Positions 1 to 22,794 of a stretch of 30,541 bases of DNA are shown piece by piece. This DNA comes from an uncultured Planctomycetales bacterium. GTDB lineage: Bacteria > Omnitrophota > Gorgyraeia > Gygaellales > Profunditerraquicolaceae. The translations under genes were made by a program, and so were the position numbers. The stretch is from assembly GCA_964554825.1 (NCBI GenBank), contig CAZKQC010000001.1:1-30541 (forward strand). Direction: 5' to 3'. The stretch's first letter is position 1. Each line of letters begins with the position of its first letter. Under the pieces are notes generated by a model that saw only the letters and a list, made by a program, of their open reading frames with translations, had not been told where the DNA came from and ran no database searches.

Positions 1-704
1 AGATTAAGAGATTGTCGATAGTTATCCCTATCTATAACGAAGTAGAGTTTGTCCTGGACACTATACGAGATATAGTAAAGGTAGCCTCCGCAATGATCGA
101 AGACCTTGAGGTTATTGCGGTAGATGATAATAGTTCAGATACCACTGCGGCTATCCTGCGTAACTTGGCCGCGCAAGAGAAACGATTGCGGGTGGTCAAC
201 AACCGCAGAAAGAGAGGGTTGGGTAATGCCCTGCGTACCGGATTTTGCCATGCCGCCAAAGAAGCAATCCTCTATACCGATGCCGATATGCCCTGTGACC
301 TCGGAGAGTTAAGAAAGGCAATTACCTTAATGGAAGAAGAGGACGCAGATATAGTTTCTGCCTACCGCCTGAATAATAAGCAGGGCGGGCTCAAGCGCTA
401 TCTCTATTCCAGGGTATTCAACTTCTTTATGCGTACCTTGTTTCATCTGGGCGTCAGGGATATCAATTTTTCTTTTAAGCTTTTTAGAAAAAACCGGCTG
501 GACGCCTTACGGCTAGAATCACAGGGCTCTTTTATTAATGCCGAATTATTCGCCAAGGCTGTTAAGGCGCAGTATAAGATTGTTCAGTTTCCGGCGTTCT
601 TTCTGCTTCGACAGAGGGGTAAATCTAAGCTGGATAATATCGGTAATATCGCGACGATTATCTGCGAGTCGGTTCTTTTTCTGTGCAAACAGTGGCATTC
701 CTGA
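1..704 (+). CDS. GT2 glycosyltransferase, polyprenol-phosphate glycosyltransferase (DPM1/ArnC-like); probably 5'-truncated by the window edge
   Basis: SIVIPIYNE, VDDNSSDTT, GLGNALRTG, DAD (YTDADM), ADIVSAYR and DINFSFKLFR are typical DPM-like GT2 motifs. The frame is open to the window edge (att aag aga ttg = IKRL before SIVIP), so the true start probably lies upstream of the TTG at 12. Confidence 0.9.
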   Translation, partial: IKRLSIVIPIYNEVEFVLDTIRDIVKVASAMIEDLEVIAVDDNSSDTTAAILRNLAAQEKRLRVVNNRRKRGLGNALRTGFCHAAKEAILYTDADMPCDLGELRKAITLMEEEDADIVSAYRLNNKQGGLKRYLYSRVFNFFMRTLFHLGVRDINFSFKLFRKNRLDALRLESQGSFINAELFAKAVKAQYKIVQFPAFFLLRQRGKSKLDNIGNIATIICESVLFLCKQWHS

Positions 705-721
705 CCAGGGACTGTTAATCG

Positions 722-1381
722 ATGAGAGAATTGAGAGGGGGCAGTTTCCGTGAATTTTATGCTGCGCTTCCCTGGCGCTACAAGCTTTATGTTAACCTGC
801 GTTTAAGCAGCTGTCCTTTTGAAAAGATCGAAAAGGCGGTGCCTGCTGCAGGTAGGATCCTTGATCTTGGCTGCGGAGTGGGATTATTCTCATTTTTCCT
901 AACTTCAGGCTCTAAGCAGCGGGATATCCTGGGAGTTGATTGCAGGAGAGAACGTATCCTTCTGGCCCGCAAGATTAATGCCGAGAGAGGCTCTGCGGGG
1001 ATTGATTTTAGGCATGCCGATATTGTTTCCTGGGAGTACGGCAGCGATTATGACTGCATACTCTTAAGCGATGTCCTCTATCAGCTTCCGCTGGCGGACA
1101 AAAAGAAGGTTTTAAAGAAGAGTTTTTCTGCTTTGAGCAGCACAGGGGTGTTGGTGGTTAAAGAGGTTGAGCTCGGGCCCTCCCTGAAGATGCTCTGGTG
1201 TTATCTGCAGGAATGTTTTATGGCGCGCATAGCTGGTTTAAATACCAGGCGGGTAGAGGCTATGAGTGCCAACGGCCTCTGTGCAATTATCCGCGAGGCC
1301 GGGTTTCGGGTCAGAAGCGAGAAGATAGACCAAGGCTATGCCTACCCTCATATTCTCTGCGTAGGTAGAAAAGATGGGTAA
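722..1381 (+). CDS. Class I SAM-dependent methyltransferase
   Basis: Motif I ILDLGCGVG, acidic residue after strand 2 (LGVD), YDCILLSDVLY and GVLVVKE. Confidence 0.9.
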   Translation: MRELRGGSFREFYAALPWRYKLYVNLRLSSCPFEKIEKAVPAAGRILDLGCGVGLFSFFLTSGSKQRDILGVDCRRERILLARKINAERGSAGIDFRHADIVSWEYGSDYDCILLSDVLYQLPLADKKKVLKKSFSALSSTGVLVVKEVELGPSLKMLWCYLQECFMARIAGLNTRRVEAMSANGLCAIIREAGFRVRSEKIDQGYAYPHILCVGRKDG

Positions 1382-2771
1382 ACAGTTAAAGGTCCTCCTT
1401 GTTAATCCTCCTTCAGAGCAGCCCTGTATAAGGGATTACTACTGCAGTTTCTCGTCACAAGCTAGTTACTACTGGCCCCCTCAGGACCTGGTGCTTTTAA
1501 GCGGCACCCTGAAAGATATTACGCAGGTTGAGTATTTAGATCTGCAGGGGCAGCGGCTGGGCGCGAAAGAGGGACTGGAACGCATCGCCAGGAACGCTTA
1601 TGACGCCGTAGTGTTTACCAGCGGTTCGCTTAGCCTGGAGACAGACCTTTTGTTTATAAAGATGGTAAAGGAGCGCTTGCCGCAGGCTAAGACTATTGTC
1701 AGCGCCGCGCCTTTTATCTTTATCGGAGAACAGGTTATCCGGCAATCGCCTTTCTTAGATGGCATACTGCTCGATTTTACCAACGCAGACCTGCTTTATT
1801 TTCTGAGTAGAGAGTATGATTGTATAAAAAATATGTTCTACCGCCGCGAAGACGGCGGAATAATCTTAGAAAACAGGCCTTTAGCTGATAGTTTCTCTCT
1901 ACCTGCCCCATATCATGGGCTTTTCCTTTCCGGTTTACACCGGATGCCTCCTTTTGTTTTTGGCCATAAGCCATTTCTGACTACCATTGCCTCCACCGGA
2001 TGTCCTTTTAAGTGCACCTTTTGTGTTGCCGGACGGGTTAAATACAGATACAGGGAATTAGACAATCTTATTGCTGAGCTTAGAGAGATGCACTCAAGGC
2101 TAGGAGTAAGGAATGTGTTCTTTGCCGACTGCCATTTTCTTGCTAACCCCATCCGTAGTTCGGCTATCTGCTCAGAGCTTATCTCTAATTTTTCCGGAAC
2201 CCTGAGCTGGATCTGTAATAGCCGTATCGAGCCACTCCTTGATGAAAAGATGGTGATCTCGCTCAGCAAGGCAGGATGCAAGATGGTTATGATAGGTGCG
2301 GAGAGCGCTTCTTCCGAGATGCTTGACCGCTACGCCAAGGGTCTCTCGGCGCAGGACGTAGAGAAGGCAGTCCGTTACTGCCGCAGGCAGGGGATTTATA
2401 CCCTTCTTTATTTTATCCTCGGCCTGCCTGGTGAAGATGAGATTTCCCTGCGGCGCACCAGAGAATTCATTGACCGGACTGCCTGCGATTTTATATCGCT
2501 TAGTTTTGCCATGCCGGATTTTGGTACTGCGCTCAGAGATGTTGCAATCGATGCCGGGTTGTGTGATAACGAGCTTGGGGGCTGGGACCACACACGCAGT
2601 CCCTACCTTAAAAGCACGTACTCCCCTGATGAGCTTATCGGGATCAGGAAGAGTATTTACCGCAGATTTTATTTTAAGCCCCGCAGGCTGCTAGAGAGGG
2701 CAAAGGATATAAGATCGTTAAGATTTGTTGACCTGGAAGAGGGGGTGAGATTATTAAAAAGCTGGTGGTGA
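1374..2771 (+). CDS. Cobalamin-binding-domain radical SAM protein (COG1032-like, class B type) #1
   Basis: N-terminal LLVNPP...WPPQDL, then STGCPFKCTFC (CxxxCxxC), FFADCHF, WICNSR, GAESAS, FILGLPGED and PDFGT. Overlaps the upstream gene by 8 nt. Confidence 0.85.
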   Translation: MGKQLKVLLVNPPSEQPCIRDYYCSFSSQASYYWPPQDLVLLSGTLKDITQVEYLDLQGQRLGAKEGLERIARNAYDAVVFTSGSLSLETDLLFIKMVKERLPQAKTIVSAAPFIFIGEQVIRQSPFLDGILLDFTNADLLYFLSREYDCIKNMFYRREDGGIILENRPLADSFSLPAPYHGLFLSGLHRMPPFVFGHKPFLTTIASTGCPFKCTFCVAGRVKYRYRELDNLIAELREMHSRLGVRNVFFADCHFLANPIRSSAICSELISNFSGTLSWICNSRIEPLLDEKMVISLSKAGCKMVMIGAESASSEMLDRYAKGLSAQDVEKAVRYCRRQGIYTLLYFILGLPGEDEISLRRTREFIDRTACDFISLSFAMPDFGTALRDVAIDAGLCDNELGGWDHTRSPYLKSTYSPDELIGIRKSIYRRFYFKPRRLLERAKDIRSLRFVDLEEGVRLLKSWW

Positions 2772-3610
2772 ATGCGGATGACTTTGGCCTTGCCTCCGGG
2801 ATGAACCGGGGGATCATGGAATCGGTCGGGGGCGGATATGTCTCGAGCGTTTCTCTGTGTGTCAATGGCAGGGCTTTTGAAGAAGCGCTGGCCTTGATAA
2901 GGAAGAATCCCCGTCTTGATATCGGACTGCATATTGTCCTGGTTGGGGAGAGGCCGGTGAGCGAGCCCGAGCTTATAAAAAGCCTGGTAGATAGAGGAGG
3001 GAATTTCCATAAAGATGCCTTTATTTTTCTTGGGCGTTACCTTCTACGCAGGATTAATGCGCAGGAGATCGAAAGCGAAATCTGCGCCCAGTTTCAGAAA
3101 GCCAGGGAGGCGGGCCTTAATATTTCCCATGTGGATAGTCACCAGCACCTGCATATGCTGCCGGGGATTTTAGATATTATCATCAGGATGTGTAAGCGTT
3201 ATCGCGTCTCTTTTATCCGCACACCCCGTTGTCCTGTGGTCAGGCATTGGCGTTTTGCCAGAAAGAAAAAGATATTTGCTCAGCTGGGGCTGAATATATT
3301 AGCAGCGCTGGCCAGAAACAAGATTAATGCCTCTGGGTTACGCACCGTCGATGTTACCAGCGGGACGCTATACTCCGGCGCGCTGAATGAAGAGCGTTTT
3401 TCAGCTTTCGTCTCTTCACTGGAAGACGGAATTGCAGAAATTATCTGCCACCCTGCTTTCGTAGATACCTTTGTTTCAGAGCGATACGGAGACTGGCACT
3501 ACGATTGGGAGGGTGAGCGCAGGTTTTTGGCTTCAGATAGGCCCGGGGTGTATATGAAGCGCCGTGAGGTTACCCTGACTGATTTCTCTAGCCTGGCCAA
3601 TGGATTTTAA
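2753..3610 (+). CDS. YdjC/ChbG/HpnK-family carbohydrate deacetylase (start ATT 2753, or GTG 2765 as in the ORF track)
   Basis: VNADDFG, IGLHIVL, HVDSHQHLH and EIICHP are the family metal-binding and catalytic motifs. The start codon is discussed under findings. Confidence 0.9.
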   Translation: MKKLVVNADDFGLASGMNRGIMESVGGGYVSSVSLCVNGRAFEEALALIRKNPRLDIGLHIVLVGERPVSEPELIKSLVDRGGNFHKDAFIFLGRYLLRRINAQEIESEICAQFQKAREAGLNISHVDSHQHLHMLPGILDIIIRMCKRYRVSFIRTPRCPVVRHWRFARKKKIFAQLGLNILAALARNKINASGLRTVDVTSGTLYSGALNEERFSAFVSSLEDGIAEIICHPAFVDTFVSERYGDWHYDWEGERRFLASDRPGVYMKRREVTLTDFSSLANGF

Positions 3611-3621
3611 GGGTGGTTACC

Positions 3622-5052
3622 ATGGTTGAGTCTAAAACTGGCTGCGTTAAGAGGGCGCTGTTAATTAATCCTCCGACAGGGTTATATGACCGCTATGAGC
3701 GTTGTCAGGCATTGACGGAATCAGAGTCTGTGAATATAATCCGGCCGCCCCTGGACCTTATGTATCTAGCTGCTATATGCAGGAGGCAGGGGGTGGAGGC
3801 GGTAATCCGCGACTACCCCGCCCAAAAGGCAGGATGGCAGGAGGTAGAACGGGATATCGCAGGCTTACGGCCGGATTTTTTACTGGCTAGTTTAACGCTG
3901 GCTACTTATAAAGATGATATGCGTGCTTTTGCGATAGCTAAGAAATTTAATCACCTGACTTTGACCGTAGCCAAGGGGATTCTTACCCGGACAGGCGAGG
4001 AGTTGTTTGCGCATTATCCCGGGATAGACCTTCTCCTGCGCCAGGAGCCGGAGCTGGCCTGGGAAGAGCTCTTGGCCGGAAAGCCCCTTGGTGAGATTCA
4101 GGGATTGACCTGGCGCAAGGGGGCTAGAGAGGTAGTTAATCCCCCGCGGCAAAGAGACGCAGATCTGGATTATCTGCCTTTTCCTGAACGGAACCTTACA
4201 AACAACTCTTTCTACAGGATGCCGGATAATGGCAGAAAAATGGGGCTGGTTTTGACGAGTAAGGGGTGTCCTTTTCCTTGTACCTTCTGTCTTGCCCCTC
4301 TGGCAGATGGCAGCAAGGTCAGGAAGCGCAGCCCTGTTTCCCTGGTCAATGAACTGGAAGAATATGTAAGGGAGTGCGGTATTCGTGATTTCTGGTTACG
4401 CGCCGATTGTTTTACGCTTGATAAAAGATGGGTTATGGAGATATGCCAGCGTATCATCGATGGGGAGCTTCCGATACGCTGGGCTACGAACGGCCGCGTA
4501 GATAATGTTGATGAAGAGATGTTGATTGCCATGAAGAAAGCAGGATGTTTTGCATTAGGGTTTGGTGTTGAGAGCGGAAGTACAGAGACCCTGCAGCGGA
4601 TCAAGAAGGGGATAACCAGAGAGCAGGCTAAGGCAGCGGTTAGGCTCTGCCGCAGGCTGGGGATTCAGACATACCTTTTCTTTATTATCGGATTTCCCTG
4701 GGAGCGCGAGTCGCATATTATGTCAACCCTTGATTTTGCTGAAGAGTTAAACGGAGACCTCTTTAATTTCTCCTTAGCTGTGCCTTTTCCCGGCACTCCT
4801 CTCTTTACCGAAGCAAAAGAGCTGGGGCTTCTGGGGGAGGAGGGCTCTTACGCAGATTTTAATTATTCCTCTGCCGCTATGGATACTCTTTATCTCAAAA
4901 GAGAACGATTGCTTGAGCTTGAGCGGATGGCTTATCGCCGCCTGATCCTTCGGCCTTCATATATCCTGCGTCAGGCAGGTAAGATTAAGTCTTGCCAGAT
5001 GCTTGGGGGTTATCTGAAGGCTGCCTGGCATATGTCCAAGATGTTATTCTAG
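3622..5052 (+). CDS. Cobalamin-binding-domain radical SAM protein (HpnJ/COG1032-like) #2
   Basis: LLINPPTG...RCQ, PPLDLMYLAA, TSKGCPFPCTFC, WATNGRVD, FGVESGS, FIIGFPWE and PFPGTPL. ATG 3622 is preferred over GTG 3613 on RBS spacing. Confidence 0.87.
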   Translation: MVESKTGCVKRALLINPPTGLYDRYERCQALTESESVNIIRPPLDLMYLAAICRRQGVEAVIRDYPAQKAGWQEVERDIAGLRPDFLLASLTLATYKDDMRAFAIAKKFNHLTLTVAKGILTRTGEELFAHYPGIDLLLRQEPELAWEELLAGKPLGEIQGLTWRKGAREVVNPPRQRDADLDYLPFPERNLTNNSFYRMPDNGRKMGLVLTSKGCPFPCTFCLAPLADGSKVRKRSPVSLVNELEEYVRECGIRDFWLRADCFTLDKRWVMEICQRIIDGELPIRWATNGRVDNVDEEMLIAMKKAGCFALGFGVESGSTETLQRIKKGITREQAKAAVRLCRRLGIQTYLFFIIGFPWERESHIMSTLDFAEELNGDLFNFSLAVPFPGTPLFTEAKELGLLGEEGSYADFNYSSAAMDTLYLKRERLLELERMAYRRLILRPSYILRQAGKIKSCQMLGGYLKAAWHMSKMLF

Positions 5053-5062
5053 GAGCATGTTT

Positions 5063-6418
5063 ATGGAGTCAGAGAAGATACTGTTGATTACGTCCTCACC
5101 TCACAGGCAAGGCGATTATATAAATCACCTCCCGCCTCTGGGGATTTTGTACCTGGCTGCGTACCTACAGCAGAACGGTTTTTTTGTTGATGTGGTTGAT
5201 GAAAACGTCAGTAGGCTGGATATAGCGGCGCTAGGTAACTATCGCCTTATTGGTTTTAGCATCAATGTCGCCAATATTGAAAACAGCATGAATTTGGTCT
5301 ATAGGATCCATAGCCTTTACCCCCACATACCCCTTGTTATCGGAGGGCCGCTTCCTACCACCCTGCCTGAGTTTTTCTTTGCCTGGCCGCTAGAGGCTAT
5401 CTTTATATCTGAAGCAGAAGAGAGCTTCCTGGGTTATCTTGCGGGAGGAGATTCTGCGCAGGAGCTCGGGTACTACTTTAAGAATCCTTCCACAGGTGCC
5501 TGGACTTTTAAAGGTCCTGCTCCTTATATTAAAGAGTTAGACCGCCTGCCTTTCCCTGCCCTAGAGAAAGTTACCCTGGAGCGTTATTACACGCCGGTAA
5601 AGAGGAAGGTTCCGGTATCCAGCCTTATATCATCACGTGGTTGTCCATTTACCTGTACTTTCTGTTCGAAGACTTTGGGAAATAAGCTCCGGGTCCGCTC
5701 AGCGGAAAATGTGGTGAAAGAAATAGAGTGGCAGACGAAGGTTCTGGGCGTAAGGGAGATTGCCATCTATGACGATAATTTTACCCTGGATGCCAAGCGG
5801 GCAGAGGAGATCTGCGATTTACTGATAGAAAAAGATATCAAGGTCAGCTTACAGCTTACCAACGGGGTGCGCGCTGATACCATGCGCCGGGAGCTTATCT
5901 TTAAGATGAAAAAGGCTGGGTTCTGGATGATTGCCTTTGCGCCGGAGAGCGGCAGCGAGGTAACCTTAAAGAGGTTGAAGAAGGGGTTAGAACTTAAACA
6001 GGTAGAAGATTGCGTGGCCTGGTGCAGGGAGGCTGGTATTAAGAGCTGGGTTTTCTTTATGGTGGGATTCCCCTGGGAAGATCATCGGATGCTTGGGCAG
6101 ACGATCAGGGTTGCCAAGAGGATACGCTCAGAAATTACGCATTTCTCTAATTTCACCTGCTTGCCGGGTAGTGAATTATACCAAGAGGCATGCGGGAGGG
6201 CAGATGGGTGGAGGGCTCAGGACGTAAATCTCTTCAGTAATAGGGGCAGGCTAGGCTCTTCTCGTGAAAGGTTACCGGATAAAAGAATAACAGCCAAAGG
6301 TTATGCTGCCGTGTATCTGGCAGACCCCTTAAGGATGATTAATCTTTTTTCCGTATTATCGCTTAAGGACCTTTTTGCCGTTATCTGGTACGCAGCCAGG
6401 AGCAGGAACATTTTTTAA
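5063..6418 (+). CDS. Cobalamin-binding-domain radical SAM protein #3
   Basis: PPLGILYLAAYL, IGFS, VIGGP, SSRGCPFTCTFC, IYDDNFT, NGVRAD, PESGS and FMVGFPWE. AGGAG at 5051-5055 fits ATG 5063 better than ATG 5057. Confidence 0.88.
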   Translation: MESEKILLITSSPHRQGDYINHLPPLGILYLAAYLQQNGFFVDVVDENVSRLDIAALGNYRLIGFSINVANIENSMNLVYRIHSLYPHIPLVIGGPLPTTLPEFFFAWPLEAIFISEAEESFLGYLAGGDSAQELGYYFKNPSTGAWTFKGPAPYIKELDRLPFPALEKVTLERYYTPVKRKVPVSSLISSRGCPFTCTFCSKTLGNKLRVRSAENVVKEIEWQTKVLGVREIAIYDDNFTLDAKRAEEICDLLIEKDIKVSLQLTNGVRADTMRRELIFKMKKAGFWMIAFAPESGSEVTLKRLKKGLELKQVEDCVAWCREAGIKSWVFFMVGFPWEDHRMLGQTIRVAKRIRSEITHFSNFTCLPGSELYQEACGRADGWRAQDVNLFSNRGRLGSSRERLPDKRITAKGYAAVYLADPLRMINLFSVLSLKDLFAVIWYAARSRNIF

Positions 6419-6438
6419 AAAGCGGTTTTTAAATTAAC

Positions 6439-9400
6439 ATGCAGACAAATATCAAGAAAAAGACAGACGTAATCTTTATACTTTTTTTGGCCTTTTGCGG
6501 TTTATATATTGTGCACAATATCGTCTTTCTGCGGCTGGATAATTACTTTAATTTTCTGGAGCAATCTCTTACCTCTTCCGTACGAAAGTATTATTCCATA
6601 TACGACTTCCCTAGCCAGCTTACTAATATCAAAAATTTACAACAAACCTTCGGGTCGCGCGCCCCTGACAGGGCAATTTACGATGTGTTTACCTGGCCGT
6701 TCTTTTATTTGTTTGGCGTATCCATAGATACAGCCGTGTACCACAATTTTATTTTTCTTATTATACTTATCTTCTTCACATATAAGATAGGCACCATGAT
6801 CAAAGACAGGTATGTAGGGATGCTGGCTGTCTTCTGTCTGCTGATGTATCCTGGCACGTTCGGGTACCTGCGCATTTATTTTACGTCTATTGCTACCGTG
6901 GCCTTTGTGAGTTTAGGGGTATATGCCCTTCTCTCATCGGATTACTTTAAGAAGACTAAAAAAGTCCTTCTCTGGGTTTTTTCCTGTATTATATTGCTTA
7001 AACTTAAATCCGAGAAGCCGGTTGTGTTTCTTTTTGTTCCTACCCTGATTTATCTCTACCAATCCTTCGTTCTTAACAGAAAAGATCCCGTGCATATAAG
7101 AGCCTACTACCGCAATATGCTCATCTCCTTTATGGTTTTTCTGGCATTCCTTTTATTGCTTTTTGACACCAGCGCCATGGCATTACGGTTTAATTATTAC
7201 CTAAACGAAGTCAGCGGGATATCCCATACTATGAGGGTTAGCCAGGATAAGATCGGCGTAAATATCCTGCTCATCTATCTTAAAGAATTGTTTAATAACC
7301 AGCTGGCTAACCTGGGTTTTTTCCTCTTTGCAGTAGCCCTTCCATTTTTTCTACAGTCTAAGACAAGGCATAAGGCCATTATCATCTCCTGGTTTTTGTT
7401 CCCCTACGTATTCCATTCAGTGTATTACTATGTCTGTGGGATACGCGCGACGTACTATACGATATGCTATCTGCCTGCCATTGCGCTGATGACATCCTGC
7501 GGTATATATAAAATTTTACCCGTTGTCCGGCGCAGCCTCAGGGTTATCTTCCTGGCAGTATGCGTGGCGTTGTTTTTGATGAATTATATGTATATGAGTC
7601 ACTTGAATAAACAGTTTTCCTTGGTTTGGGGCACTGCGTATACGCCTTTAATGGGAAAGATCGCCCTTACCAGGGTAAGCCCGAACAAAGGGATCCTTGA
7701 AGAGACGCAGAGGATTATCGATATCCTTGTTGAGGCGAAGGATTCAGCCGGGGTTGTCTTTGTAAACCACTATCCCACGCTGCACACTGTTTACAGCAGG
7801 ATTAGGTTAAAGAACGCTATCAAACGAAACAAGATTTTAGCCTATGACTTCTCCATTAAATTATTTAACATTGAGCCAGCTGATTCCGAGGGATACGTCA
7901 GGGACAAATTAACCCAGGCCGATCTCGTTATTAACGGAAATCGTTTTTACCCTGTGGAATCCAGCCCTGCGCTTAAAGAGTATAAACAATTTGGTACCTG
8001 GTATGACTTCAGCAGCTATATGCAAAGAGAAGAGAGGGCATACAACGCCGTTAAAAATAACCTTGTAGAGTTAAAAACAATCAAGACCAAGAATTATGAC
8101 GCCACCGTGTATCTCAGTAAGGGCGCAAGAGAGCTTTTGGAGAAAAAAGTTTCCCACCCGGTTAATTTTGACAGGATAAAAAATGAGCTTGATTTGCTAA
8201 GAGAATTACAAGACCTCCGCTATGTAGAGGAAGGCCCCCTGCGGTTATTCTTTGCCCAGGGGTGCGCCAGGATATTCTGGAAAGACCAAGAGTTAACTGG
8301 GAAAAAAGGGCTTGGGACCTCCTTTTCTGCTGGCGGTATCGGTTATAGCGGAGCAGATTTCTCCTGGGAAATTGAGAAAACATCTCCTCGAGAGATAATC
8401 GCCACTGGGTACTCTCCTGTTTTGGCTTTAAAGCAGGTGTGGAAATTTACTATAAACGAAGGGCGGCTGAGTTGGCAGATTGCATTGGAGGCAGGTAAGA
8501 TTATTAATATATATGATTTCGATGTTAATTGTCCCTTGAGGCGCGGGTATCGTAAACAGGTAGGGATGTATGGTAAAAGGGACGCCCCTTTTTTAGCTCC
8601 TCCAAGAAACAGCTTGGGTAATCTTGATCAAGAACACGCTGTTTTTCCCTGGGTTTTTCTGGATCTTGGGGATAAGGGGGTCCTAAACAGATCCTCAGCG
8701 CGCATAACAAAGGGTTTCTTCAGGGAATCCGTTTCTCTGGTGGGGTTCGGTCCCCGCCGCCTATCGCTTGCTCCAGGCAGATACGAATTTTTTCCCGGCA
8801 TCCTCTCCTTTTTTGACACAGAAGACGGATTGGCTGAATACCTACGCAAGACACAGGCTTCTCAGGAGATAAGTAAGGGCAAAGTGAGATTGTTTTTCGA
8901 TGGGGGAAGGGTAAAAATATTTTCGAGAGAGAAGGAGCTAACAGCCAAAGAAGGAGTTTTTCTCATGATCCTTTCTGCTGGCAGATGGTATTTTTCTTCA
9001 CTAGATGCCCTATGGACCGTTAAAAAAGAAACTCCTCAAAGGTTTATTCTTGAAGGCACCTGGAAAGAGCTGGCTATTTCCAGCCTCTGGGAATTCCAGG
9101 TAGAAGAGGGAGGAGTTGTTCACTACCGCCTCGATCTTAAGGCGCAGAAGGAGCTTAACCCGGAGCATGTTTTGTTTGTCGTTATGCTGCCAGATAGGTA
9201 TGGCTCTTACCTTATTCCTTCTAAAAAGGAGATAAAGAGATTCCCCTGGTTCCATCCTGATACTGAAGGATGGGATACCATTTGGGATGCGAATACTAAG
9301 CGTATTTCCAGGATAGGAGTTATGGATAGCAGAAGTAAGGAAAATGTCATTCTCGATTGCAACTTGTCTTTGGATGACTCCAACTCCGTAATCTCGAATA

Positions 9401-9534
9401 CGCACAGAAGAACCTTTGCGCGGGCATTGATTTATGATAGAATAGGCAAAAATAATAAGCCATTATCAGTCGGTAATTACACATTTTTTGCAGGCAGCAT
9501 AGAGGTAAATGCCAAAGAGTATTTTAATAAATAA
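6439..9534 (+). CDS. Large membrane protein: N-terminal GT-C (ArnT/PMT-like, GT39/GT83-type) multi-TM domain plus C-terminal duplicated ~215-aa soluble domain
   Basis: About 10-12 hydrophobic segments in the first ~400 aa with ArnT-like patterns (FTYKIG...YVGMLAVFCLLMYP...YLRIY; RYTICYLP-like YYTICYLPAIAL). Two similar segments start at PLRLFFAQG.ARIF...ELT and KVRLFFDGG.VKIF...ELT. Confidence 0.7.
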   Translation: MQTNIKKKTDVIFILFLAFCGLYIVHNIVFLRLDNYFNFLEQSLTSSVRKYYSIYDFPSQLTNIKNLQQTFGSRAPDRAIYDVFTWPFFYLFGVSIDTAVYHNFIFLIILIFFTYKIGTMIKDRYVGMLAVFCLLMYPGTFGYLRIYFTSIATVAFVSLGVYALLSSDYFKKTKKVLLWVFSCIILLKLKSEKPVVFLFVPTLIYLYQSFVLNRKDPVHIRAYYRNMLISFMVFLAFLLLLFDTSAMALRFNYYLNEVSGISHTMRVSQDKIGVNILLIYLKELFNNQLANLGFFLFAVALPFFLQSKTRHKAIIISWFLFPYVFHSVYYYVCGIRATYYTICYLPAIALMTSCGIYKILPVVRRSLRVIFLAVCVALFLMNYMYMSHLNKQFSLVWGTAYTPLMGKIALTRVSPNKGILEETQRIIDILVEAKDSAGVVFVNHYPTLHTVYSRIRLKNAIKRNKILAYDFSIKLFNIEPADSEGYVRDKLTQADLVINGNRFYPVESSPALKEYKQFGTWYDFSSYMQREERAYNAVKNNLVELKTIKTKNYDATVYLSKGARELLEKKVSHPVNFDRIKNELDLLRELQDLRYVEEGPLRLFFAQGCARIFWKDQELTGKKGLGTSFSAGGIGYSGADFSWEIEKTSPREIIATGYSPVLALKQVWKFTINEGRLSWQIALEAGKIINIYDFDVNCPLRRGYRKQVGMYGKRDAPFLAPPRNSLGNLDQEHAVFPWVFLDLGDKGVLNRSSARITKGFFRESVSLVGFGPRRLSLAPGRYEFFPGILSFFDTEDGLAEYLRKTQASQEISKGKVRLFFDGGRVKIFSREKELTAKEGVFLMILSAGRWYFSSLDALWTVKKETPQRFILEGTWKELAISSLWEFQVEEGGVVHYRLDLKAQKELNPEHVLFVVMLPDRYGSYLIPSKKEIKRFPWFHPDTEGWDTIWDANTKRISRIGVMDSRSKENVILDCNLSLDDSNSVISNTHRRTFARALIYDRIGKNNKPLSVGNYTFFAGSIEVNAKEYFNK

Positions 9535-10633
9535 TACAGGCAGGGCGATTGGCAAGCTTGTTTTTTCTTTAAGCAGTCTTCTGATTTTTTTTGGCGTGCT
9601 GGAGTTGTGTTTGCGGCTCGCGGGGTTTGGCAATACCAGAGAAGAAAACCCGGGGATCAAAAGGCCGCTTTTTCAGATGGGAGGTCCCCTGCGGCCGGTG
9701 GATCCTCCATCCTTCGGGTCTTACTATAGGGATAACGTTTTATTCTGGAGGTTGAAACCAAATGAGGATGAAGATGTTAATATCAGGGGGTATCGCGGGA
9801 CGCTGTGCGACTACCAGAAACCTCAAGGGGTCTATAGGATCATTCTGCTTGGAGACTCCTGTGTTTATGGGATGAATTTTAGGCATAAGGATACCTATGC
9901 CTATCTCCTGGAAGAAAAGCTTAATGCCTTGTATGGGGGCCGCGTAGAGATAATTAATGCCGGCGTTCCCGGATACTCTTCTTTGCAGGGATTGAGGTAT
10001 TTGAAGAAAGAGTTGATCAGATATAAGCCGGATATGCTCCTGGTAGGTTTCGGTTTTAATGACCTCTGCGAAGCGCTGGGTTCTCCCGATAAAGATATCC
10101 GTTTTCTTCCGGAGTTTTTGGTTGGGCTCGATAATAGCTTAAGCAGATTACGGCTCTATGTTTTCCTGAAACAAATAATTTTTAATCTAAAAAGCGCCGT
10201 AATTCCCAAATACAGGTTTAGTGCGGCTGGAGGTAGGCCAAGGACTTTTGTGCGAACATGCCAAGAGAGCAGGGAATTAGAGCAATTAATTCAGGAGTAT
10301 ACCCTGGCCTTTGATGCCCCGGCAAGAAGGGTCTCACCCAGGGATTTTGTCAGTAATATACGGGAGATCATTAAATTTGGCGCTAAAAATCATATTCGCG
10401 TTGTTTTATTGGCCCAGCCTTCGGTAGAGTCATCTTTTGTATACGAACCGGTACTTAGCATATTAGCCAAAGAGTATAACATAGGGCTTGTTGACCTCGT
10501 CGAGGAATTCAAAAAGAGAAAAGCGAATCGGCAGGAATATTTTCTCGATAATAACCACTATAATGAAAAAGGCCACCGGCTCATTGCCGATATATTATAT
10601 GATCGCCTGCACGCACTGGTCTTTGCTGATTAA
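9509..10633 (+). CDS. Membrane-anchored SGNH/GDSL hydrolase-family protein (esterase or O-acyltransferase)
   Basis: N-terminal TM segment (LLIFFGVLELCLRL), block I LLGDS, block II INAGVPGYSS, block III GFGFND and block V DNNH. The catalytic S/G/N/D-H set is intact. Confidence 0.88.
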   Translation: MPKSILINNTGRAIGKLVFSLSSLLIFFGVLELCLRLAGFGNTREENPGIKRPLFQMGGPLRPVDPPSFGSYYRDNVLFWRLKPNEDEDVNIRGYRGTLCDYQKPQGVYRIILLGDSCVYGMNFRHKDTYAYLLEEKLNALYGGRVEIINAGVPGYSSLQGLRYLKKELIRYKPDMLLVGFGFNDLCEALGSPDKDIRFLPEFLVGLDNSLSRLRLYVFLKQIIFNLKSAVIPKYRFSAAGGRPRTFVRTCQESRELEQLIQEYTLAFDAPARRVSPRDFVSNIREIIKFGAKNHIRVVLLAQPSVESSFVYEPVLSILAKEYNIGLVDLVEEFKKRKANRQEYFLDNNHYNEKGHRLIADILYDRLHALVFAD

Positions 10634-10636
10634 CCG

Positions 10637-11704
10637 ATGACTATGGATAGAAAAAAAGCACTGAAAAGAAACGTGGGTTTTTGGCTCTCCAGGAAAATTA
10701 ATTACCCTCTCCTCCCTCCAGACACTTTGCAGCTTTCATTAACCAGCAGGTGTAATTTACGCTGCAAGATGTGCAACGTCTGGGAAGCTGCCCGCAAGGA
10801 AGAAGAACTGAGCCTTCATGAAATAAAGTCTGTTGTCGATCAGTGCCGCCAGTGGGGAGTGGAAGAGGTGAACCTTTGCGGCGGAGAGCCTCTGCTCAGC
10901 GATATCTGCCTGGATATTATCTCCTATGTCAAAGAGAGCGGCATGCGGGTGATACTTACTACCAATGGCACATTGTTGAACGAAGAGATGGCAAAAAAAC
11001 TGGTTGATCTTAAAGTAGATATTATCACGGTTTCTCTTGACGGGGCCAGGCCTCAGACCCACGATAATATCAGGGGGCAGGAAGGCTCCTACGCTAAGAT
11101 AATCCAGGGTATAAAGAATCTGAACTATTTCGGGAAAGGGGCTGGCCCTGTTAAGGTACTCATCCTGACTATCTCGAATTATAATTTAGACGAACTGGAA
11201 GAATACTTCTCCCTGGCCAAGAGTATCTCCGTAGATGCCCTGTATTTGACCCCCGTAGTCCTGGATAATGTCCGGCTTTATATGCAAGGCGAAGAGGATA
11301 AGAAACAAGATCTCTGGATCAGCGGGGAGCGCCTGCGTAAACTCGATGAAGTGGTGGATAGGCTTATCATTCTTCAGAAGGAGCGCTACGGACTTAACTA
11401 CCCCAGCTTTAGTTTGCTTAAGAAGTATTTTCGCGGTCAGGTTACTGCTAAGGACTGGGTTTGTTTTGCCGGTTACCGCAGGTTTGTCCTGGTGCCTTCA
11501 GGTACGGTGCAGATGTGCGGGGAGGCAGTGGGTAATATACGCAGCACCCCGGATATACGAAAGATCTGGACCTCTGCCGCAGCTCGTAAAAGGAGGATAT
11601 GGATTAAGCGCTGCCGTCACTTCTGTCTTCAGGATTGCCACGCTAGGCAGGAATCAGCTACTATGCGGAATATTTTACAGCATACTTTTTCTAAACAAAG
11701 ATGA
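10637..11704 (+). CDS. Radical SAM protein with C-terminal SPASM/twitch-type domain A
   Basis: LTSRCNLRCKMC, GGEPLL, TTNGTLL, SLDG and C-terminal C-x17-C...CRHFCLQDC. Confidence 0.88.
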   Translation: MTMDRKKALKRNVGFWLSRKINYPLLPPDTLQLSLTSRCNLRCKMCNVWEAARKEEELSLHEIKSVVDQCRQWGVEEVNLCGGEPLLSDICLDIISYVKESGMRVILTTNGTLLNEEMAKKLVDLKVDIITVSLDGARPQTHDNIRGQEGSYAKIIQGIKNLNYFGKGAGPVKVLILTISNYNLDELEEYFSLAKSISVDALYLTPVVLDNVRLYMQGEEDKKQDLWISGERLRKLDEVVDRLIILQKERYGLNYPSFSLLKKYFRGQVTAKDWVCFAGYRRFVLVPSGTVQMCGEAVGNIRSTPDIRKIWTSAAARKRRIWIKRCRHFCLQDCHARQESATMRNILQHTFSKQR

Positions 11705-13065
11705 GGATAGCCTTAGTATTCCCCCCGCTCTATGGTGTTGATATGCCTCCGCTGGGCATTGCCTATATCGCTGCCCAGCTGTTGAAAGACGGCCATGAAG
11801 TGAAGGTATATTGTTTTAACTCTCAGCTTTACCAGGAGAATGCCGCTAAGAGGTTCTTGTGGGATTGGGATCAGTCAGGTGCGTGGTCTGGCATTGAGCG
11901 GCTCAATCGGCATTTTGACATAAGCCGGTTATTAGAAAAATGGGTAGAGGAGATCCTGCGTTTTAATCCTAAGCTGGTAGGCTTTAGCGTAAACAGCCAT
12001 TCCAGGCTCTTGGCAGATCTCTTGGCAGATAAGCTGAAGGAAAAAAGAAAAGATATCGCGGTTGTCTTCGGCGGCCCCTGGTGCGTGGAGCTGCTGGAGG
12101 AATCCCTCTTCAATAAGAATGTGGATATATACGTAAAGGGAGAAGGGGAGCTTATCGCCAGTAAGATAGCAGAAAAGATATCCCGCAACGAACCAATCAG
12201 CGATTTAAATATGCCGGGCACAGTGGTAAATACCGCAGCTGGATTTCGCGATAACGGGTGGGCAGAGAAGCCGCTAGATATAAACTCTCTGCCTTATCCT
12301 GCCCTTTCTCTTTTTAGCCCCGACAACTACACCAATAAAACAGAGATACCGATTATTTTCAGTCGGGGCTGTAATTACCATTGCAGGTTTTGCACCGATA
12401 AGCCGATGTGGGGCAATTATAGGATGCGCAGCGCCGAGGATATTCTCGGAGAGATGCGCCAACATAGCGGGCTTTTTGGTAGAGTGAGGTTTAAGTGCAA
12501 CGATTTGATGGTGAATGGAGACCTGAAGGGCTTAGAGGCATTTGCCGACGCCGTCATTAAGGAAGGGCTGCCTTTCGAGTGGGGCGGGATGGCCAGGGCC
12601 AGGCCAGAGACCGGCCAAGAGATTTTTAACAAACTAAGAAAAGCAGGGTGTATATATTTTACCTACGGCATAGAGAGCGGCGCCCATAAGGTCCTTTCCC
12701 ATATGGGGAAGCCTCCCAAGGGCGCTATATCCCGTGCGCTTAAGATGACCAGCCGGGCAGGTATTAAGGTAAATACCCTCTGGATGGCGGGGTATCCTAC
12801 GGAGAGCTGGATAGATGTTTTTGAAACAATGCTTTTCCTGTTTTTTAATAGAAGGTATATAGATGAATTCGTAAGCGTAAGCTCCTGCTATATACCGCGG
12901 CAGTCATGGATAGGAAAACAGCAGAGGGAACTGGGGATAGAGTATAATGATAAATCCGAATGGTATATCAAAGGGGTAAATACTCCTTTTAGAAGAGAGC
13001 TGCGCAGGAGATGGCTGTTATCCCTGGCTAGCCTCTTGGGTATTTACCGGGGAGGAATACAGTAA
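11701..13065 (+). CDS. Cobalamin-binding-domain radical SAM protein #4
   Basis: VFPPLY..DMPPLGIAYIAA, VGFSV, FGGP, FSRGCNYHCRFC, WGGMARA, YGIESG and MAGYPTES. ATGA overlap with the upstream gene. Confidence 0.87.
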   Translation: MRIALVFPPLYGVDMPPLGIAYIAAQLLKDGHEVKVYCFNSQLYQENAAKRFLWDWDQSGAWSGIERLNRHFDISRLLEKWVEEILRFNPKLVGFSVNSHSRLLADLLADKLKEKRKDIAVVFGGPWCVELLEESLFNKNVDIYVKGEGELIASKIAEKISRNEPISDLNMPGTVVNTAAGFRDNGWAEKPLDINSLPYPALSLFSPDNYTNKTEIPIIFSRGCNYHCRFCTDKPMWGNYRMRSAEDILGEMRQHSGLFGRVRFKCNDLMVNGDLKGLEAFADAVIKEGLPFEWGGMARARPETGQEIFNKLRKAGCIYFTYGIESGAHKVLSHMGKPPKGAISRALKMTSRAGIKVNTLWMAGYPTESWIDVFETMLFLFFNRRYIDEFVSVSSCYIPRQSWIGKQQRELGIEYNDKSEWYIKGVNTPFRRELRRRWLLSLASLLGIYRGGIQ

Positions 13066-13066
13066 G

Positions 13067-14332
13067 ATGGATGCTAAGATGAACCCTAAGACACGTGAGT
13101 ATATGACAGATTTAATAACCGACTACCGTTTTTATTTTTCTCGTGCCCTAAACAGGGTCATGGTAGCTCCGGATATGATCCAGATCATGCTGACCTCTAA
13201 ATGCAATATCCGCTGCAAGATCTGCGATGTATGGAAGCAGGATTTTAATCCGCAGATGACCACGGAAGAGGTCAAGCGCTTAATCGATCAGGCGATTGAG
13301 CTGGGGGTCAGGACCATCTATTTTACCGGAGGGGAGGCTTTTCTGCGCCAGGATATATTCGAGCTTATCGATTATGCCTCTCGGCCGGGCATAATTACTA
13401 CGGTTAACACCAACGGGAGCATTATTACAGACGAGATGGCCCGTAAGATCGTTGGCTCTAGGCTCAGGAATATCACTTTTTCCATCGATAGCGCCCAGCC
13501 AGAATTGCATAATTCAATAAGAGGCAAGGATGTTTTTGAAAAAGCAATCAAGGGAATAGGGTTAGTTAACCATTATAAAAAGGAGCTGCTTAGAAGGTTT
13601 GAGGATAATCCAGAAGGCCGGTTAGATGTAGGGATGGTGAGCGTAATTATGAAGCACAACATCGCAGAGCTGCCTGGGCTGGTAAAATTAGCTCAAGATA
13701 TGCAGTGCGGATATATAGCCTTTCAGCCGCTGGTATATAATGGGAGCCTGCTTGATAATGCTAATTTTCAGTCGGATTTTTGGCTGGATGAGCAAGACAT
13801 CATCCGGCTAGAAGCTGTTTTCAAAGAACTAGAGGCCATTAGGGAAAAGATGTTTACGCAGGGATTTTATCCATTTGGTATTGACTTTATGCCGGAGAAG
13901 ACGATACAGCATTTTCGTAAAGAAAGAATAGTAAATACCTGTTTTGTCGGTTTCAGCAGGATTTTTGTAAATCCTCAGGGAGATATAAGTTTTGTGTGTT
14001 TTGAGCCATTAGGGAACATCAGAAATAGCTCCCTAAAAGAGGCATGGTTATCCCAGAAGGCATATGAGATTCGCTCCCGGATCAAGGAATGCAGGGTAAA
14101 TTGTACTCAGTTTTGCTCTGAACGTCCCGAGTCAGAGGATATAGGGCGTATACACAAAAGATTTATACAAGAGACAGATGCGCTTTTCGAAGCCGAATCA
14201 GCCTTTTTGCAACATATGGCCCAGGAAACGAAGATTGCCGCCCAGGCCAATAATAACGACTTCCAGGTATTTCTCGAACAAATAAAAGATATATTAGAAT
14301 CAACGAAAAGCCGTCCAAGACAGAATGGTTAA
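13067..14332 (+). CDS. Radical SAM SPASM/twitch-type protein B with C-terminal extension
   Basis: LTSKCNIRCKIC, TGGEAFL, NTNGS, FSIDS and C-terminal CFVG...VC...CRVNCTQFC followed by a ~65-aa helical tail. GGAGG RBS upstream. Confidence 0.88.
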   Translation: MDAKMNPKTREYMTDLITDYRFYFSRALNRVMVAPDMIQIMLTSKCNIRCKICDVWKQDFNPQMTTEEVKRLIDQAIELGVRTIYFTGGEAFLRQDIFELIDYASRPGIITTVNTNGSIITDEMARKIVGSRLRNITFSIDSAQPELHNSIRGKDVFEKAIKGIGLVNHYKKELLRRFEDNPEGRLDVGMVSVIMKHNIAELPGLVKLAQDMQCGYIAFQPLVYNGSLLDNANFQSDFWLDEQDIIRLEAVFKELEAIREKMFTQGFYPFGIDFMPEKTIQHFRKERIVNTCFVGFSRIFVNPQGDISFVCFEPLGNIRNSSLKEAWLSQKAYEIRSRIKECRVNCTQFCSERPESEDIGRIHKRFIQETDALFEAESAFLQHMAQETKIAAQANNNDFQVFLEQIKDILESTKSRPRQNG

Positions 14333-15269
14333 CCCAGAGATAGAGGATAGGGCGATGATGCGCTTTAAGCAATTCTACATTGCTATGACAAACAGGTGCA
14401 ATCTAAAGTGCCGCATGTGTACTACTACTACGCATCCTCATCAGCTGGAGGAAGAGCTCTCGTTAGACCAGTGGGAAGGCATCATTGATAATATTACCCG
14501 TTTCCAGGTAGAAAGCGTTGGTTTTGGCGGAGGAGAACCGTTAGTTCGTCAAGAAGATCTTATCAGGTTGGCAGGCTTAGTTGCAGCCAGGGGCATAACC
14601 GTCAATATCATAACCAATGCTACGTTACTAAAAACAGATTTTCTGGAAGCAGTCCTTCCTTACCGGGAAAAGATTATATTCTTGTTTTCCCTGGATGGCC
14701 TGGAGGCAGAAAATGACAGAATACGCGGTGAGGGTGTTTTTAAAAAGGTCATTGAAACGGCCGACCTGCTGCAGAAATACCAGTGGCCATTTTATATCAC
14801 CTCTGTCCTGCAGCCGGATAATTTTTTAGGATTTGTGTCGTTTTTGACATTCGTAAACAAACGCTATCCGCAGGTGCAGATAGATATTCAACCAATCATA
14901 CCCCATAATGAAATTTATTACCGCAGAAAGAAGTTTGAGCTTGGTGAGGAGCAGCTGGAAGCCCTAAAGGGCATATTGAACTTTCTCCACGATAACGAAG
15001 GAATAATCAGGCTTTGTCGTTCTTTGAAAATAATAGATAAATATTGGGATTATTTTAACAATACGCTTCGTTCAGAAAATCAGTGTAAGATGGGAACGGA
15101 GAGTTTTAACATCAATCTGCGGGGTAATCTCTGGATCTGCGGTAAGGAGCTGGAGTATCCGCTCTATCGTTATCCCCTGGAAGAGGTATTTCGTTCTAAC
15201 GAGTACCTGGGCGAGATGGAAAGAGTAAAGCGTTGTGCCTCCCCCTGCCTGGCGGGATTAGTTATCTAG
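14325..15269 (+). CDS. Radical SAM SPASM/twitch-type protein C
   Basis: MTNRCNLKCRMC, GGGEPL, ITNA, FSLDG and C-terminal CKMG...IC...CASPC. Confidence 0.87.
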   Translation: MVNPEIEDRAMMRFKQFYIAMTNRCNLKCRMCTTTTHPHQLEEELSLDQWEGIIDNITRFQVESVGFGGGEPLVRQEDLIRLAGLVAARGITVNIITNATLLKTDFLEAVLPYREKIIFLFSLDGLEAENDRIRGEGVFKKVIETADLLQKYQWPFYITSVLQPDNFLGFVSFLTFVNKRYPQVQIDIQPIIPHNEIYYRRKKFELGEEQLEALKGILNFLHDNEGIIRLCRSLKIIDKYWDYFNNTLRSENQCKMGTESFNINLRGNLWICGKELEYPLYRYPLEEVFRSNEYLGEMERVKRCASPCLAGLVI

Positions 15270-15282
15270 TAAAGGAGTATCT

Positions 15283-16482
15283 ATGTCCCCTGTTAATTTT
15301 TTAAGGCCAGCCCTGGAGTTTAAATACAACCCCGAAGCTGTAACTAACTGTATGGCGGAATATCTGTATACTTTAAGGCAAGATGCTGCGGTAAAACCAA
15401 TGAGGCTGTTTGTGTATCCTACCGGACTATGTAACGATTCATGCCGCTATTGTTCGGATGGTTCGCGTGCTGGCGGGGGTGACTATGGCGCCTTTCTGAA
15501 ATGTGACCCCAAGAGAGATTTCTTCAATAATAAAGTTTTTATCGATAAGCTGGTCGCGGATATCAAGAATTTAAGAATAAGGGACGTTCATCTTTTCGGG
15601 GGCGGAGAGCCGTTTTTTTATAAAGAGCAGACCTTCTATTTCTTAGAACAGCTTAAAGAAACGGATGTTTTTATAAGGGTTATCACTAACGCAAAGAATC
15701 TGGGCAGAGAAGATATGTTTAAGATCATCAAGGGCGGCTTAATCAGCCAGCTGAACATCAGTTTTAATACGGAATCCCGCCAGACAGCAGAGAAGCTTTA
15801 TGCGGATTCCTCCCGCCACCAACACTCGGTAGATGCGCTCGGAGCGATTACAGAATATAAGGGTAAATATAAAGTAGAGTTTCCCAAGATTGACATTATG
15901 TTTACCATTTTAAATATAAACTACAACCGGGTTACAGAAATTATTAATCTTCTCAAGGGGCATAGTATAAACTATTTTATGTTTCAGCCCTTGAGGTGTT
16001 ATACGAGTAAACAGAAGGAATTTGCGTTAACGAAAGAACAGGAAGAAGAGTTCTCGGCCCAGGTACCGGCTATTGAGAGAATGCTGCATGAGCTTGGGGT
16101 ACGCTCAAATATAGGAGAGTTCAAAAAAAATGAACAAAGAGGCCCATCGGGCACGAATCCTGCCGTCTCCTCTCGGTATCCGGAGCTGGTAAATAAGCAC
16201 GGCTTGCGCCTGGGCTGCTATATCCCGCTCACTACATTATCAATATGTTACAACGGAAATATCCCGCTTTGCCAATTCAAATACGATCAGCAATACAAAC
16301 AGAATTACTTCGAACTCAAAGAGCTCAAAGAATTTATCAAAAGCGAAGATTATTCTTCTTTTGTGAGGAGCTTTATTGACACAAGGCCCCCGGCAACCTG
16401 CAGCGTCTGCAACTTTTGCGTACCGTTTGAGCTGGAAATTATGAAACAAAGATTTCTGGCCTTTACCCAGAAAAAACGATAA
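15283..16482 (+). CDS. Radical SAM SPASM/twitch-type protein D
   Basis: PTGLCNDSCRYC, FGGGEPF, ITN and C-terminal CYIP...ICYNGNIPLC...CSVCNFC. AAGGAG RBS upstream. Confidence 0.85.
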   Translation: MSPVNFLRPALEFKYNPEAVTNCMAEYLYTLRQDAAVKPMRLFVYPTGLCNDSCRYCSDGSRAGGGDYGAFLKCDPKRDFFNNKVFIDKLVADIKNLRIRDVHLFGGGEPFFYKEQTFYFLEQLKETDVFIRVITNAKNLGREDMFKIIKGGLISQLNISFNTESRQTAEKLYADSSRHQHSVDALGAITEYKGKYKVEFPKIDIMFTILNINYNRVTEIINLLKGHSINYFMFQPLRCYTSKQKEFALTKEQEEEFSAQVPAIERMLHELGVRSNIGEFKKNEQRGPSGTNPAVSSRYPELVNKHGLRLGCYIPLTTLSICYNGNIPLCQFKYDQQYKQNYFELKELKEFIKSEDYSSFVRSFIDTRPPATCSVCNFCVPFELEIMKQRFLAFTQKKR

Positions 16483-16487
16483 CCCAG

Positions 16488-17588: not shown

Positions 17589-17598
17589 ACTATACGGC

Positions 17599-19032: not shown

Positions 19033-19034
19033 CG

Positions 19035-20444: not shown

Positions 20445-20468
20445 ACTTATAAAAAGAGCAGATTGTTA

Positions 20469-21500: not shown

Positions 21501-21501
21501 T

Positions 21502-22782: not shown

Positions 22783-22794
22783 TAGTTTATTAAC

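Follow-up and report, generated by a model that had tools for sequence, protein, structure and literature searches.

A conserved seven-gene cassette with three radical S-adenosylmethionine enzymes, proposed to tailor a lipid-linked amino sugar in an uncultured bacterium

The lipid-carrier systems for sugar decoration with which the locus described here can be compared consist of no more than a synthase, a flippase, a GT-C glycosyltransferase and, in some cases, a deacetylase. NaxD deacetylates N-acetylgalactosamine linked to undecaprenyl phosphate, after which the sugar is transferred to lipid A (PMC10927774), and LgmA, LgmB and LgmC provide an equivalent route for glucosamine in Bordetella (PMC4993483). 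The roles of the hopanoid enzymes HpnI, HpnK and HpnJ have been reviewed, with ring contraction being proposed for HpnJ (PMC13459092). Here, we analyzed contig CAZKQC010000001.1 of assembly GCA_964554825.1, from an uncultured bacterium of the Omnitrophota, and found at positions 1-9534 a conserved cassette of seven genes in which three radical S-adenosylmethionine (SAM) enzymes and a methyltransferase accompany a glycosyltransferase, a deacetylase and a GT-C protein. The entire contig of 30.5 kb is the window referred to below; it belongs to a metagenome-assembled genome (MAG) of 1.2 Mb that is 88% complete, and the sequencing runs that contain the stretch are freshwater, lake, sediment and sludge metagenomes. 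We read the cassette as a self-contained, horizontally mobile operon that tailors a lipid-linked amino sugar, which is then attached to a periplasmic acceptor, and we give this reading a probability of about 0.6. The chemical steps, the carrier, the flippase and the acceptor are what we infer in it from the gene identities, folds, conservation, gene fusions and modularity that we observe.

All genes in the window lie on the + strand according to the listing of open reading frames (ORFs), and positions 1-9534 contain seven plus-strand ORFs with tight or overlapping spacing. They encode, in order, a GT2 glycosyltransferase, a class I methyltransferase, radical SAM enzyme a, a YdjC-family deacetylase, radical SAM enzymes b and c, and a protein of 1031 amino acids (aa) (Table 1). 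These gene identities and this order had been given in an original prediction made from the sequence alone, and Pfam matches, homologues and predicted folds bear them out. All seven genes recur in this order in at least six other lineages, and this repetition indicates that the order is not due to chance. One of the six (L012) is a strain variant of the window; the others are L014, which like L013 and L015 comes from GCA_030153525.1, L020 and L022 from Logan assemblies, L031 from a MAG labelled "uncultured Planctomycetales," and L045 from G155, a genome of the same family but another genus. Every cassette gene has a one-to-one orthologue, at 42-57% identity, and the cassette is found on its own in some loci and next to a block of additional radical SAM genes in others. 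Variants also occur: enzyme c is absent in L032 and L019, and L008, from a genome of the same order, has a minimal form that consists of a fusion of GT2 and methyltransferase, a fusion of a B12-domain radical SAM enzyme and YdjC, a PMT_2 GT-C and a GDSL esterase. The distribution is patchy, with two genomes of the same genus being without the YdjC gene. Judged by gene order and orthology, the cassette is a conserved and portable unit. In GCA_030153525.1, the stand-alone cassette (L014:13943-19696) lies about 2 kb from carotenoid-type genes, namely those for a CrtI-like oxidase, SQS_PSY, two lycopene cyclase subunits and a polyprenyl synthase.

Table 1. Positions and basis of assignment of the cassette genes, their domains and associated features (window coordinates unless a locus is named)
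Feature	Position	Strand	Basis or remarks
GT2 glycosyltransferase	3..704	+	Pfam PF00535, 2.8e-29
Class I SAM-dependent methyltransferase	722..1381	+	Pfam Methyltransf_31, 5e-15; also Methyltransf_23/25
Radical SAM a, N-terminal B12-binding-like domain	1374..2771	+	Pfam Radical_SAM, 1.3e-21
YdjC-family deacetylase	2765..3610	+	PF04794, 1.5e-63, 215.6 bits
Radical SAM b, B12-binding-like domain	3613..5052	+	Pfam Radical_SAM, 5.9e-23
Radical SAM c, B12-binding domain	5057..6418	+	Pfam Radical_SAM, 1.3e-22
Gene for the 1031-aa protein	6439..9534	+	ORF; homologues and predicted fold
Predicted GT-C domain, residues 1-440 of the 1031-aa protein	6439..7758	+	Homologues, AlphaFold2 (AF2) fold
Two tandem ~215-aa domains of predicted beta-supersandwich fold, residues 590-795 and 806-1029	8206..9525	+	blastp, hidden Markov model (HMM), AF2, Foldseek
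Module 2 (context, outside the cassette)	9509..23817	+	Pfam; GDSL esterase, eight radical SAM genes, two GT-C paralogues, PKD lipoprotein
903-aa Wzt/TagH-like ABC ATPase	L016 (contig C106 of the same genome) 84-2795	minus	Counterparts L068:1602-4319 and L069:1469-4201

All three radical SAM enzymes of the cassette carry the cluster motif CxxxCxxC in the form CPFxCTFC (CPFKCTFC at residue 210 in enzyme a). In a maximum-likelihood tree, a, b and c each form a 100/100 clade with one member per cassette and with congruent inner branching, and on this topology the triplet is old and co-inherited. The three paralogues within the cassette share a mutual identity of just 24-30%, and enzyme b is the most conserved of all the cassette enzymes. 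The radical SAM enzymes and the methyltransferase had been predicted to be insertions into a core of glycosyltransferases and deacetylase, but they are old members conserved one to one, and it is the entire cassette, not the radical SAM enzymes, that is wedged into a larger cluster. Relatives of b at E<=1e-80 were present in 17 of the 401 genomes of the phylum. When the contexts of b-like radical SAM genes were inspected in 10 other genomes (12 loci), the full cassette was found in G155 only, which shows that the b-like family is broader than the cassette. In L021, the orthologue of enzyme a (L021:877-2261) is split into two ORFs in different frames, and either a frameshift or an error in the assembly accounts for this.

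The nearest solved relative of a, b and c is AprD4 (6FD2, 3e-22 for a; 2e-32 for b), whose family is named radical SAM diol-dehydratase in NCBIfam, while the best NCBIfam match of c is the Sden_1168 P-methyltransferase at 133 bits. AprD4 acts on the amino sugar of an aminoglycoside, in which it dehydrates an amino-sugar diol. Given that it is the best solved relative of all three enzymes, the cassette could be thought to make a soluble aminoglycoside-like secondary metabolite with the aid of AprD4-like radical SAM enzymes, the methyltransferase and the deacetylase, and to secrete it through an ABC exporter. We consider this most improbable, as the GT2 is of the polyprenyl-phosphate type, GT-C enzymes use lipid-linked donors, the window holds neither a cyclitol synthase nor an aminotransferase, and the nucleotide-binding domain (NBD) of the ABC protein is of the Wzt/TagH glycan-export type.

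The deacetylase has the YdjC motifs NADDFG and DSHQHLH intact. It scores 183.8 bits against the NCBIfam model for HpnK (cut-off, 232.6) and 151.5 bits against that for ChbG (cut-off, 227). In a YdjC tree with an unresolved backbone, from which NaxD and LgmC were left out, the cassette enzymes form a clade of their own (90/89) that is distinct from the HpnK clade (100/100) and from ChbG. A grouping with ChbG, which would have pointed to soluble chitooligosaccharide substrates, was thus not recovered.

HpnK and HpnJ are nevertheless the top NCBIfam models for the YdjC protein and for radical SAM enzymes a and b, respectively, and this raises the possibility of a pathway of the HpnI/K/J type, in which the GT2 would glycosylate a membrane lipid directly, the YdjC enzyme would deacetylate the sugar, a radical SAM enzyme would contract the ring to give a cyclitol ether head group, and the GT-C would have a separate job. 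Several lines of evidence make this highly unlikely. The HpnJ model gave 133, 186 and 125 bits for a, b and c against a cut-off of 577.6; HpnJ shares 31% identity over 326 aa with enzyme b and is placed outside a, b and c in a separate 100/100 clade. No match to squalene-hopene cyclase (shc, PF13243) was found in this 88% complete genome, and the control genomes were positive. The HpnI of Mycetohabitans had no blastp match to the window GT2 at E<1e-3, and no HpnI was among the NCBIfam matches of the GT2. Furthermore, the GT-C gene is strictly co-inherited with the other cassette genes. The resemblance to the hopanoid system is, from these comparisons, one of logic and not of membership. The original prediction had the locus combine this system with the Flm/Lgm type of pathway and had pointed to shc and lpx genes as guides to the acceptor; the evidence agrees with the Flm/Lgm-like logic but not with membership in the hopanoid system, with shc not found and LpxC present in the genome.

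The GT2 gene is truncated by the contig end, but only three residues (Met-Arg-Lys) are missing from a full length of 236 aa, and the start was recovered from another contig of the same genome, C106, and from L012. By hydropathy, the protein has no hydrophobic segment and no transmembrane (TM) helix. Its best matches in the Protein Data Bank are to ArnC (9HWJ/9BHC/8VXH, at 4e-16), followed by DPMS (5MLZ) and GtrB (5EKP), and its top NCBIfam matches are ArnC, PgfS, PgaC, AglJ, PpgS and dolichyl-phosphate hexose transferase, which are mostly polyprenyl-phosphate sugar synthases; all of these NCBIfam scores are under the equivalog cut-offs, so that the similarity holds at the family level only. 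We therefore propose that the GT2 is of the ArnC/DPMS/GtrB/PpgS type and a putative polyprenyl-phosphate N-acetylhexosamine (HexNAc) synthase. With a GT2 nearest to ArnC, DPMS and GtrB, a YdjC protein with intact motifs and a GT-C as the last gene product, the predicted carrier-lipid logic of GT2, YdjC deacetylase and ArnT-type transferase is supported.

The methyltransferase gene is fused to the GT2 gene in L008, L020 and L022, and the cassette in L021 has lost the methyltransferase and YdjC genes together. This joint absence and the fusions point to the amine that is freed in the GT2 product as the target of the methyltransferase, i.e., to a putative N-methyltransferase. Its best match is CpaM, a "corrinoid protein-associated" methyltransferase, and we considered a role in recharging cobalamin. 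We rejected this as the principal reading, since the radical SAM genes are retained in L021 without the methyltransferase, and since the methyltransferase is fused to the GT2 in three lineages.

The 1031-aa protein gave no match to Pfam or NCBIfam models, either whole or split, at E values of up to 10, and it was identified by homologue and fold searches only. A phmmer search with residues 1-440 returned 921 relatives, but only 7 cluster representatives at E<1e-30 among 1.84 billion representatives, indicating a rare subfamily; among the best 66 relatives, PMT_2 was found in 60 and PMT in 36. By homologue content, we place the protein in a rare and divergent PMT_2 subfamily. The AF2 model of residues 1-440 (pLDDT, 88.8; pTM, 0.90) has top fold matches that are all GT-C enzymes, i.e., STT3/OST, ArnT (5F15/5EZM), PglB, ALG12/9, Pmt4 and the Emb enzymes, with a TMq of 0.53-0.58 for STT3, ArnT and PglB. 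A conserved acidic pair, D34 and E41, lies just after TM1, in keeping with the acidic residue that marks the first periplasmic loop of GT-C enzymes. The N-terminal 440 aa are, from homologue content and predicted fold, a GT-C glycosyltransferase, with approximately 11 TM segments and a C terminus that is predicted to be periplasmic (AF2 helices, hydropathy and K/R-rich loops). Residues 590-795 and 806-1029 are two copies of the same ~215-aa domain. Its AF2 model (pLDDT, 89.7) is a beta-supersandwich, with Foldseek matches to the N-terminal domain of GH36, YidC P1 and galactose mutarotase. A word-based homologue search with these repeats found near relatives only, and the ABC relative discussed below came from local BLAST and HMM searches.

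The presence of ArnT among the top fold matches brings lipid A into consideration as the acceptor, with the GT-C placing the amino sugar on a lipid A phosphate in the manner of Francisella FlmF2/NaxD/FlmK or Bordetella LgmA/C/B. The cassette has the same three enzyme types, the LpxC in this genome means that lipid A exists, and in L019 the GT-C gene is followed by BamD-like and LptE genes. However, OST and PglB match the GT-C fold equally well, and the beta-supersandwich repeats are of a carbohydrate type and are common to the GT-C and the Wzt-like exporter. None of the known lipid A sugars requires three steps by radical SAM enzymes, and the GT-C gene is hypervariable between strains, which would be unusual for a lipid A enzyme. 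We therefore regard decoration of lipid A as rather unlikely.

The GT-C homologues in the PMT and PMT_2 families could also be taken to mean protein O-glycosylation, in which a PMT-like GT-C would use the tailored sugar to modify a protein that is secreted or anchored by a lipid. The PKD lipoprotein encoded at 22795-23817 would be an example of such a target, as it is encoded at the end of the cluster and combines a PKD domain with a long linker of low complexity. Its gene is, however, absent from the stand-alone cassettes L014, L031 and L045, nothing specific ties the GT-C to it, and this alternative seems very unlikely to us. The PKD protein starts with the lipoprotein signal LLAFFLAGC, and Q, P, A and K are abundant in its linker; the protein could serve as an acceptor exposed at the surface, or it could be a neighbor without any relation to the cassette.

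The hypervariability of the GT-C gene is apparent from a comparison of the window with L012. The two are 96-99.8% identical in nucleotide sequence up to about position 6000 but 69-88% identical from about 6400. The drop begins near the start of the GT-C gene, and there is no recovery over the rest of the alignment, which reaches into the GDSL esterase gene (window 6400-9650). This looks like a boundary of recombination or diversification, and such a sharp drop between otherwise near-identical strains suggests that surface specificity is determined at the GT-C end of the locus, possibly in response to pressure from phages or predators; the pattern is typical of determinants of this kind.

The acceptor that we favor for the GT-C is suggested by the genes around the cassette. 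The first 60 positions of the window overlap the end of contig C106 (~60 nucleotides at about 90% identity), which is a strain variant of the window start and supplies the upstream genes. Over the ~100 bases that were compared, C106 agrees with the L012 strain, so two strains appear to be mixed in the MAG at this locus. On C106, the upstream genes are those for an ABC ATPase of 903 aa and a secreted Methyltransf_24 protein. The NBD of the ATPase is nearest to TagH and galactan Wzt. The C terminus of this ATPase contains three copies of the ~215-aa domain of the GT-C (blastp, 8e-29; HMM domain table), and in this genome the domain is limited to these two proteins. Downstream of the cassette follows module 2, in which the esterase is membrane-anchored and the two GT-C paralogues are PMT_2-like. 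Module 2 also follows the cassette in L020-L022, and it occurs without the cassette in L068 and L069, where it is headed by a Wzm (ABC2_membrane) permease and a three-repeat Wzt ATPase. The permease gene in these two loci is directly upstream of the ATPase gene, an arrangement that is not seen in the genome of the window. Module 2 and the repeat domain are both absent from the stand-alone cassettes L014, L031 and L045. The Wzt-like ATPase was rejected as a member of the cassette, since in L068 and L069 it accompanies module 2, and the stand-alone cassettes are without it. L068 also encodes (4320-6239) a 639-aa protein with a GT2 domain fused to a radical SAM/SPASM domain, a fusion which argues that the SPASM-type enzymes of the neighboring block work on sugars and not on peptides.

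Taken together, we interpret the window as a glycan cluster of the Wzm/Wzt type, rich in radical SAM genes, into which a portable amino-sugar cassette has been wedged. A GT-C with two periplasmic copies and a Wzt ATPase with three cytoplasmic copies of the same domain favor an exported glycan as the acceptor, and it is most likely that the acceptor here is the exported surface glycan of the adjoining Wzm/Wzt-type cluster. The GT-C would then have acquired the glycan-reading domain of the exporter in order to decorate the exported glycan in the periplasm.

In the pathway that we propose, the soluble ArnC/DPMS-like GT2 would make polyprenyl-phosphate-HexNAc at the inner face of the membrane, the YdjC enzyme would remove the acetyl group, and the class I methyltransferase would methylate the product, probably at the freed amine. 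The three radical SAM enzymes, which have the class B architecture, would each alter the sugar ring. Since the anomeric phosphate must survive for the GT-C, these steps are likely to be C-methylation, deoxygenation or epimerization rather than an HpnJ-type ring contraction; the contraction to a cyclitol contemplated in the original prediction would destroy the anomeric center that the GT-C requires and is therefore unlikely. The carrier-linked sugar would subsequently be flipped, for which the neighboring Wzt-like ABC system is a candidate, and the GT-C would move it to the periplasmic acceptor. A more far-reaching version, which we put forward only tentatively and consider possible rather than probable, is that the triplet and the methyltransferase turn a polyprenyl-phosphate-linked hexosamine into an undescribed remodelled sugar, e.g., one that is N-methylated as well as multiply C-methylated or deoxygenated. 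It would be the first case of a sugar being tailored by radical SAM enzymes while bound to a carrier lipid. A beta-supersandwich "reader" on both sides of the membrane, with three copies in the Wzt-like ATPase and two in the GT-C, would at the same time couple glycan export to periplasmic decoration.

Some of our observations weigh against the proposed pathway. All curated equivalog scores of the cassette proteins in NCBIfam are far under the cut-offs, and the limits of the YdjC tree given above belong here as well. With regard to cobalamin use, the B12-binding matches are 22.5 bits for a, 30.2 for b and 55.1 for c against a Pfam gathering score of 32.1, which leaves two of the three enzymes under the threshold and only c above it, and AprD4 has a B12-binding domain yet is not known to use cobalamin. 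Neither a flippase nor a Wzm permease gene lies beside the cassette in this genome, a search for a GtrA-type flippase found none, and the sole ABC2_membrane (Wzm-like) gene of the genome is on another contig, C5. Finally, the GT-C of L022 is without the repeat domain even though its cassette sits in a larger cluster, and the argument for the acceptor is hence a tendency and not a rule.

The ABC2_membrane gene on C5 is part of a second glycan locus (C5:9000-20200), which also encodes a glycosyltransferase, an FAD enzyme, a 644-aa GT2 and a radical SAM enzyme, as well as a membrane protein that is possibly a WecA/MraY-type transferase, a guess from the start of its sequence only. The permease has no adjacent ATPase, and the orphan Wzt-like ATPase on C106 could be its partner.

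A full-text literature search for the combination of YdjC, radical SAM, glycosyltransferase and B12 found no matching paper. The system follows a known logic with undescribed additions, and what is new is the conserved radical SAM triplet, the division into two separable modules and the domain that is common to exporter and transferase. If the radical SAM enzymes do act on a carrier-bound sugar, anaerobes have an oxygen-independent route to new surface sugars, and class B radical SAM chemistry would gain a new class of substrates. Being compact (seven genes in 9.5 kb) and conserved in several uncultured lineages of freshwater, sediment and sludge, the cassette is tractable for heterologous reconstitution, and the variants without enzyme c and the variant that is without both deacetylase and methyltransferase offer natural controls.

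Compared to known systems, the cassette is similar to the Flm and Lgm pathways in that it has an ArnC-like GT2, a YdjC-family deacetylase for carrier-linked HexNAc and a GT-C, and hence the same three-step logic. It differs in that a methyltransferase and three conserved radical SAM enzymes of the class B type are added between loading and transfer, and in that the GT-C comes from a rare divergent PMT_2 subfamily and carries beta-supersandwich repeats; the acceptor is probably not lipid A. HpnI-HpnK-HpnJ, which lead to the bacteriohopanetetrol cyclitol ether, likewise combine a GT2, a YdjC deacetylase and a B12-domain radical SAM enzyme on an amino sugar, but without a GT-C step. In the GtrA/GtrB/Gtr*, GacI/GacL and mycobacterial PpgS/Rv3779 systems, a GT2 makes a polyprenyl-phosphate-linked sugar and a GT-C adds it to an exported polymer. 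The mycobacterial system is also similar in its small TM-free GT2 and its link to a Wzt-type exporter, with PpgS/Rv3779 adjoining the Wzm/Wzt galactan exporter. All of these systems, however, are without radical SAM tailoring and without a deacetylase. AprD4, GenK and GenD1 provide the precedent for the deoxygenation and C-methylation of amino sugars alongside class I N-methyltransferases, although their substrates are the soluble pseudo-oligosaccharides of actinomycete antibiotic pathways and not sugars linked to a carrier lipid.

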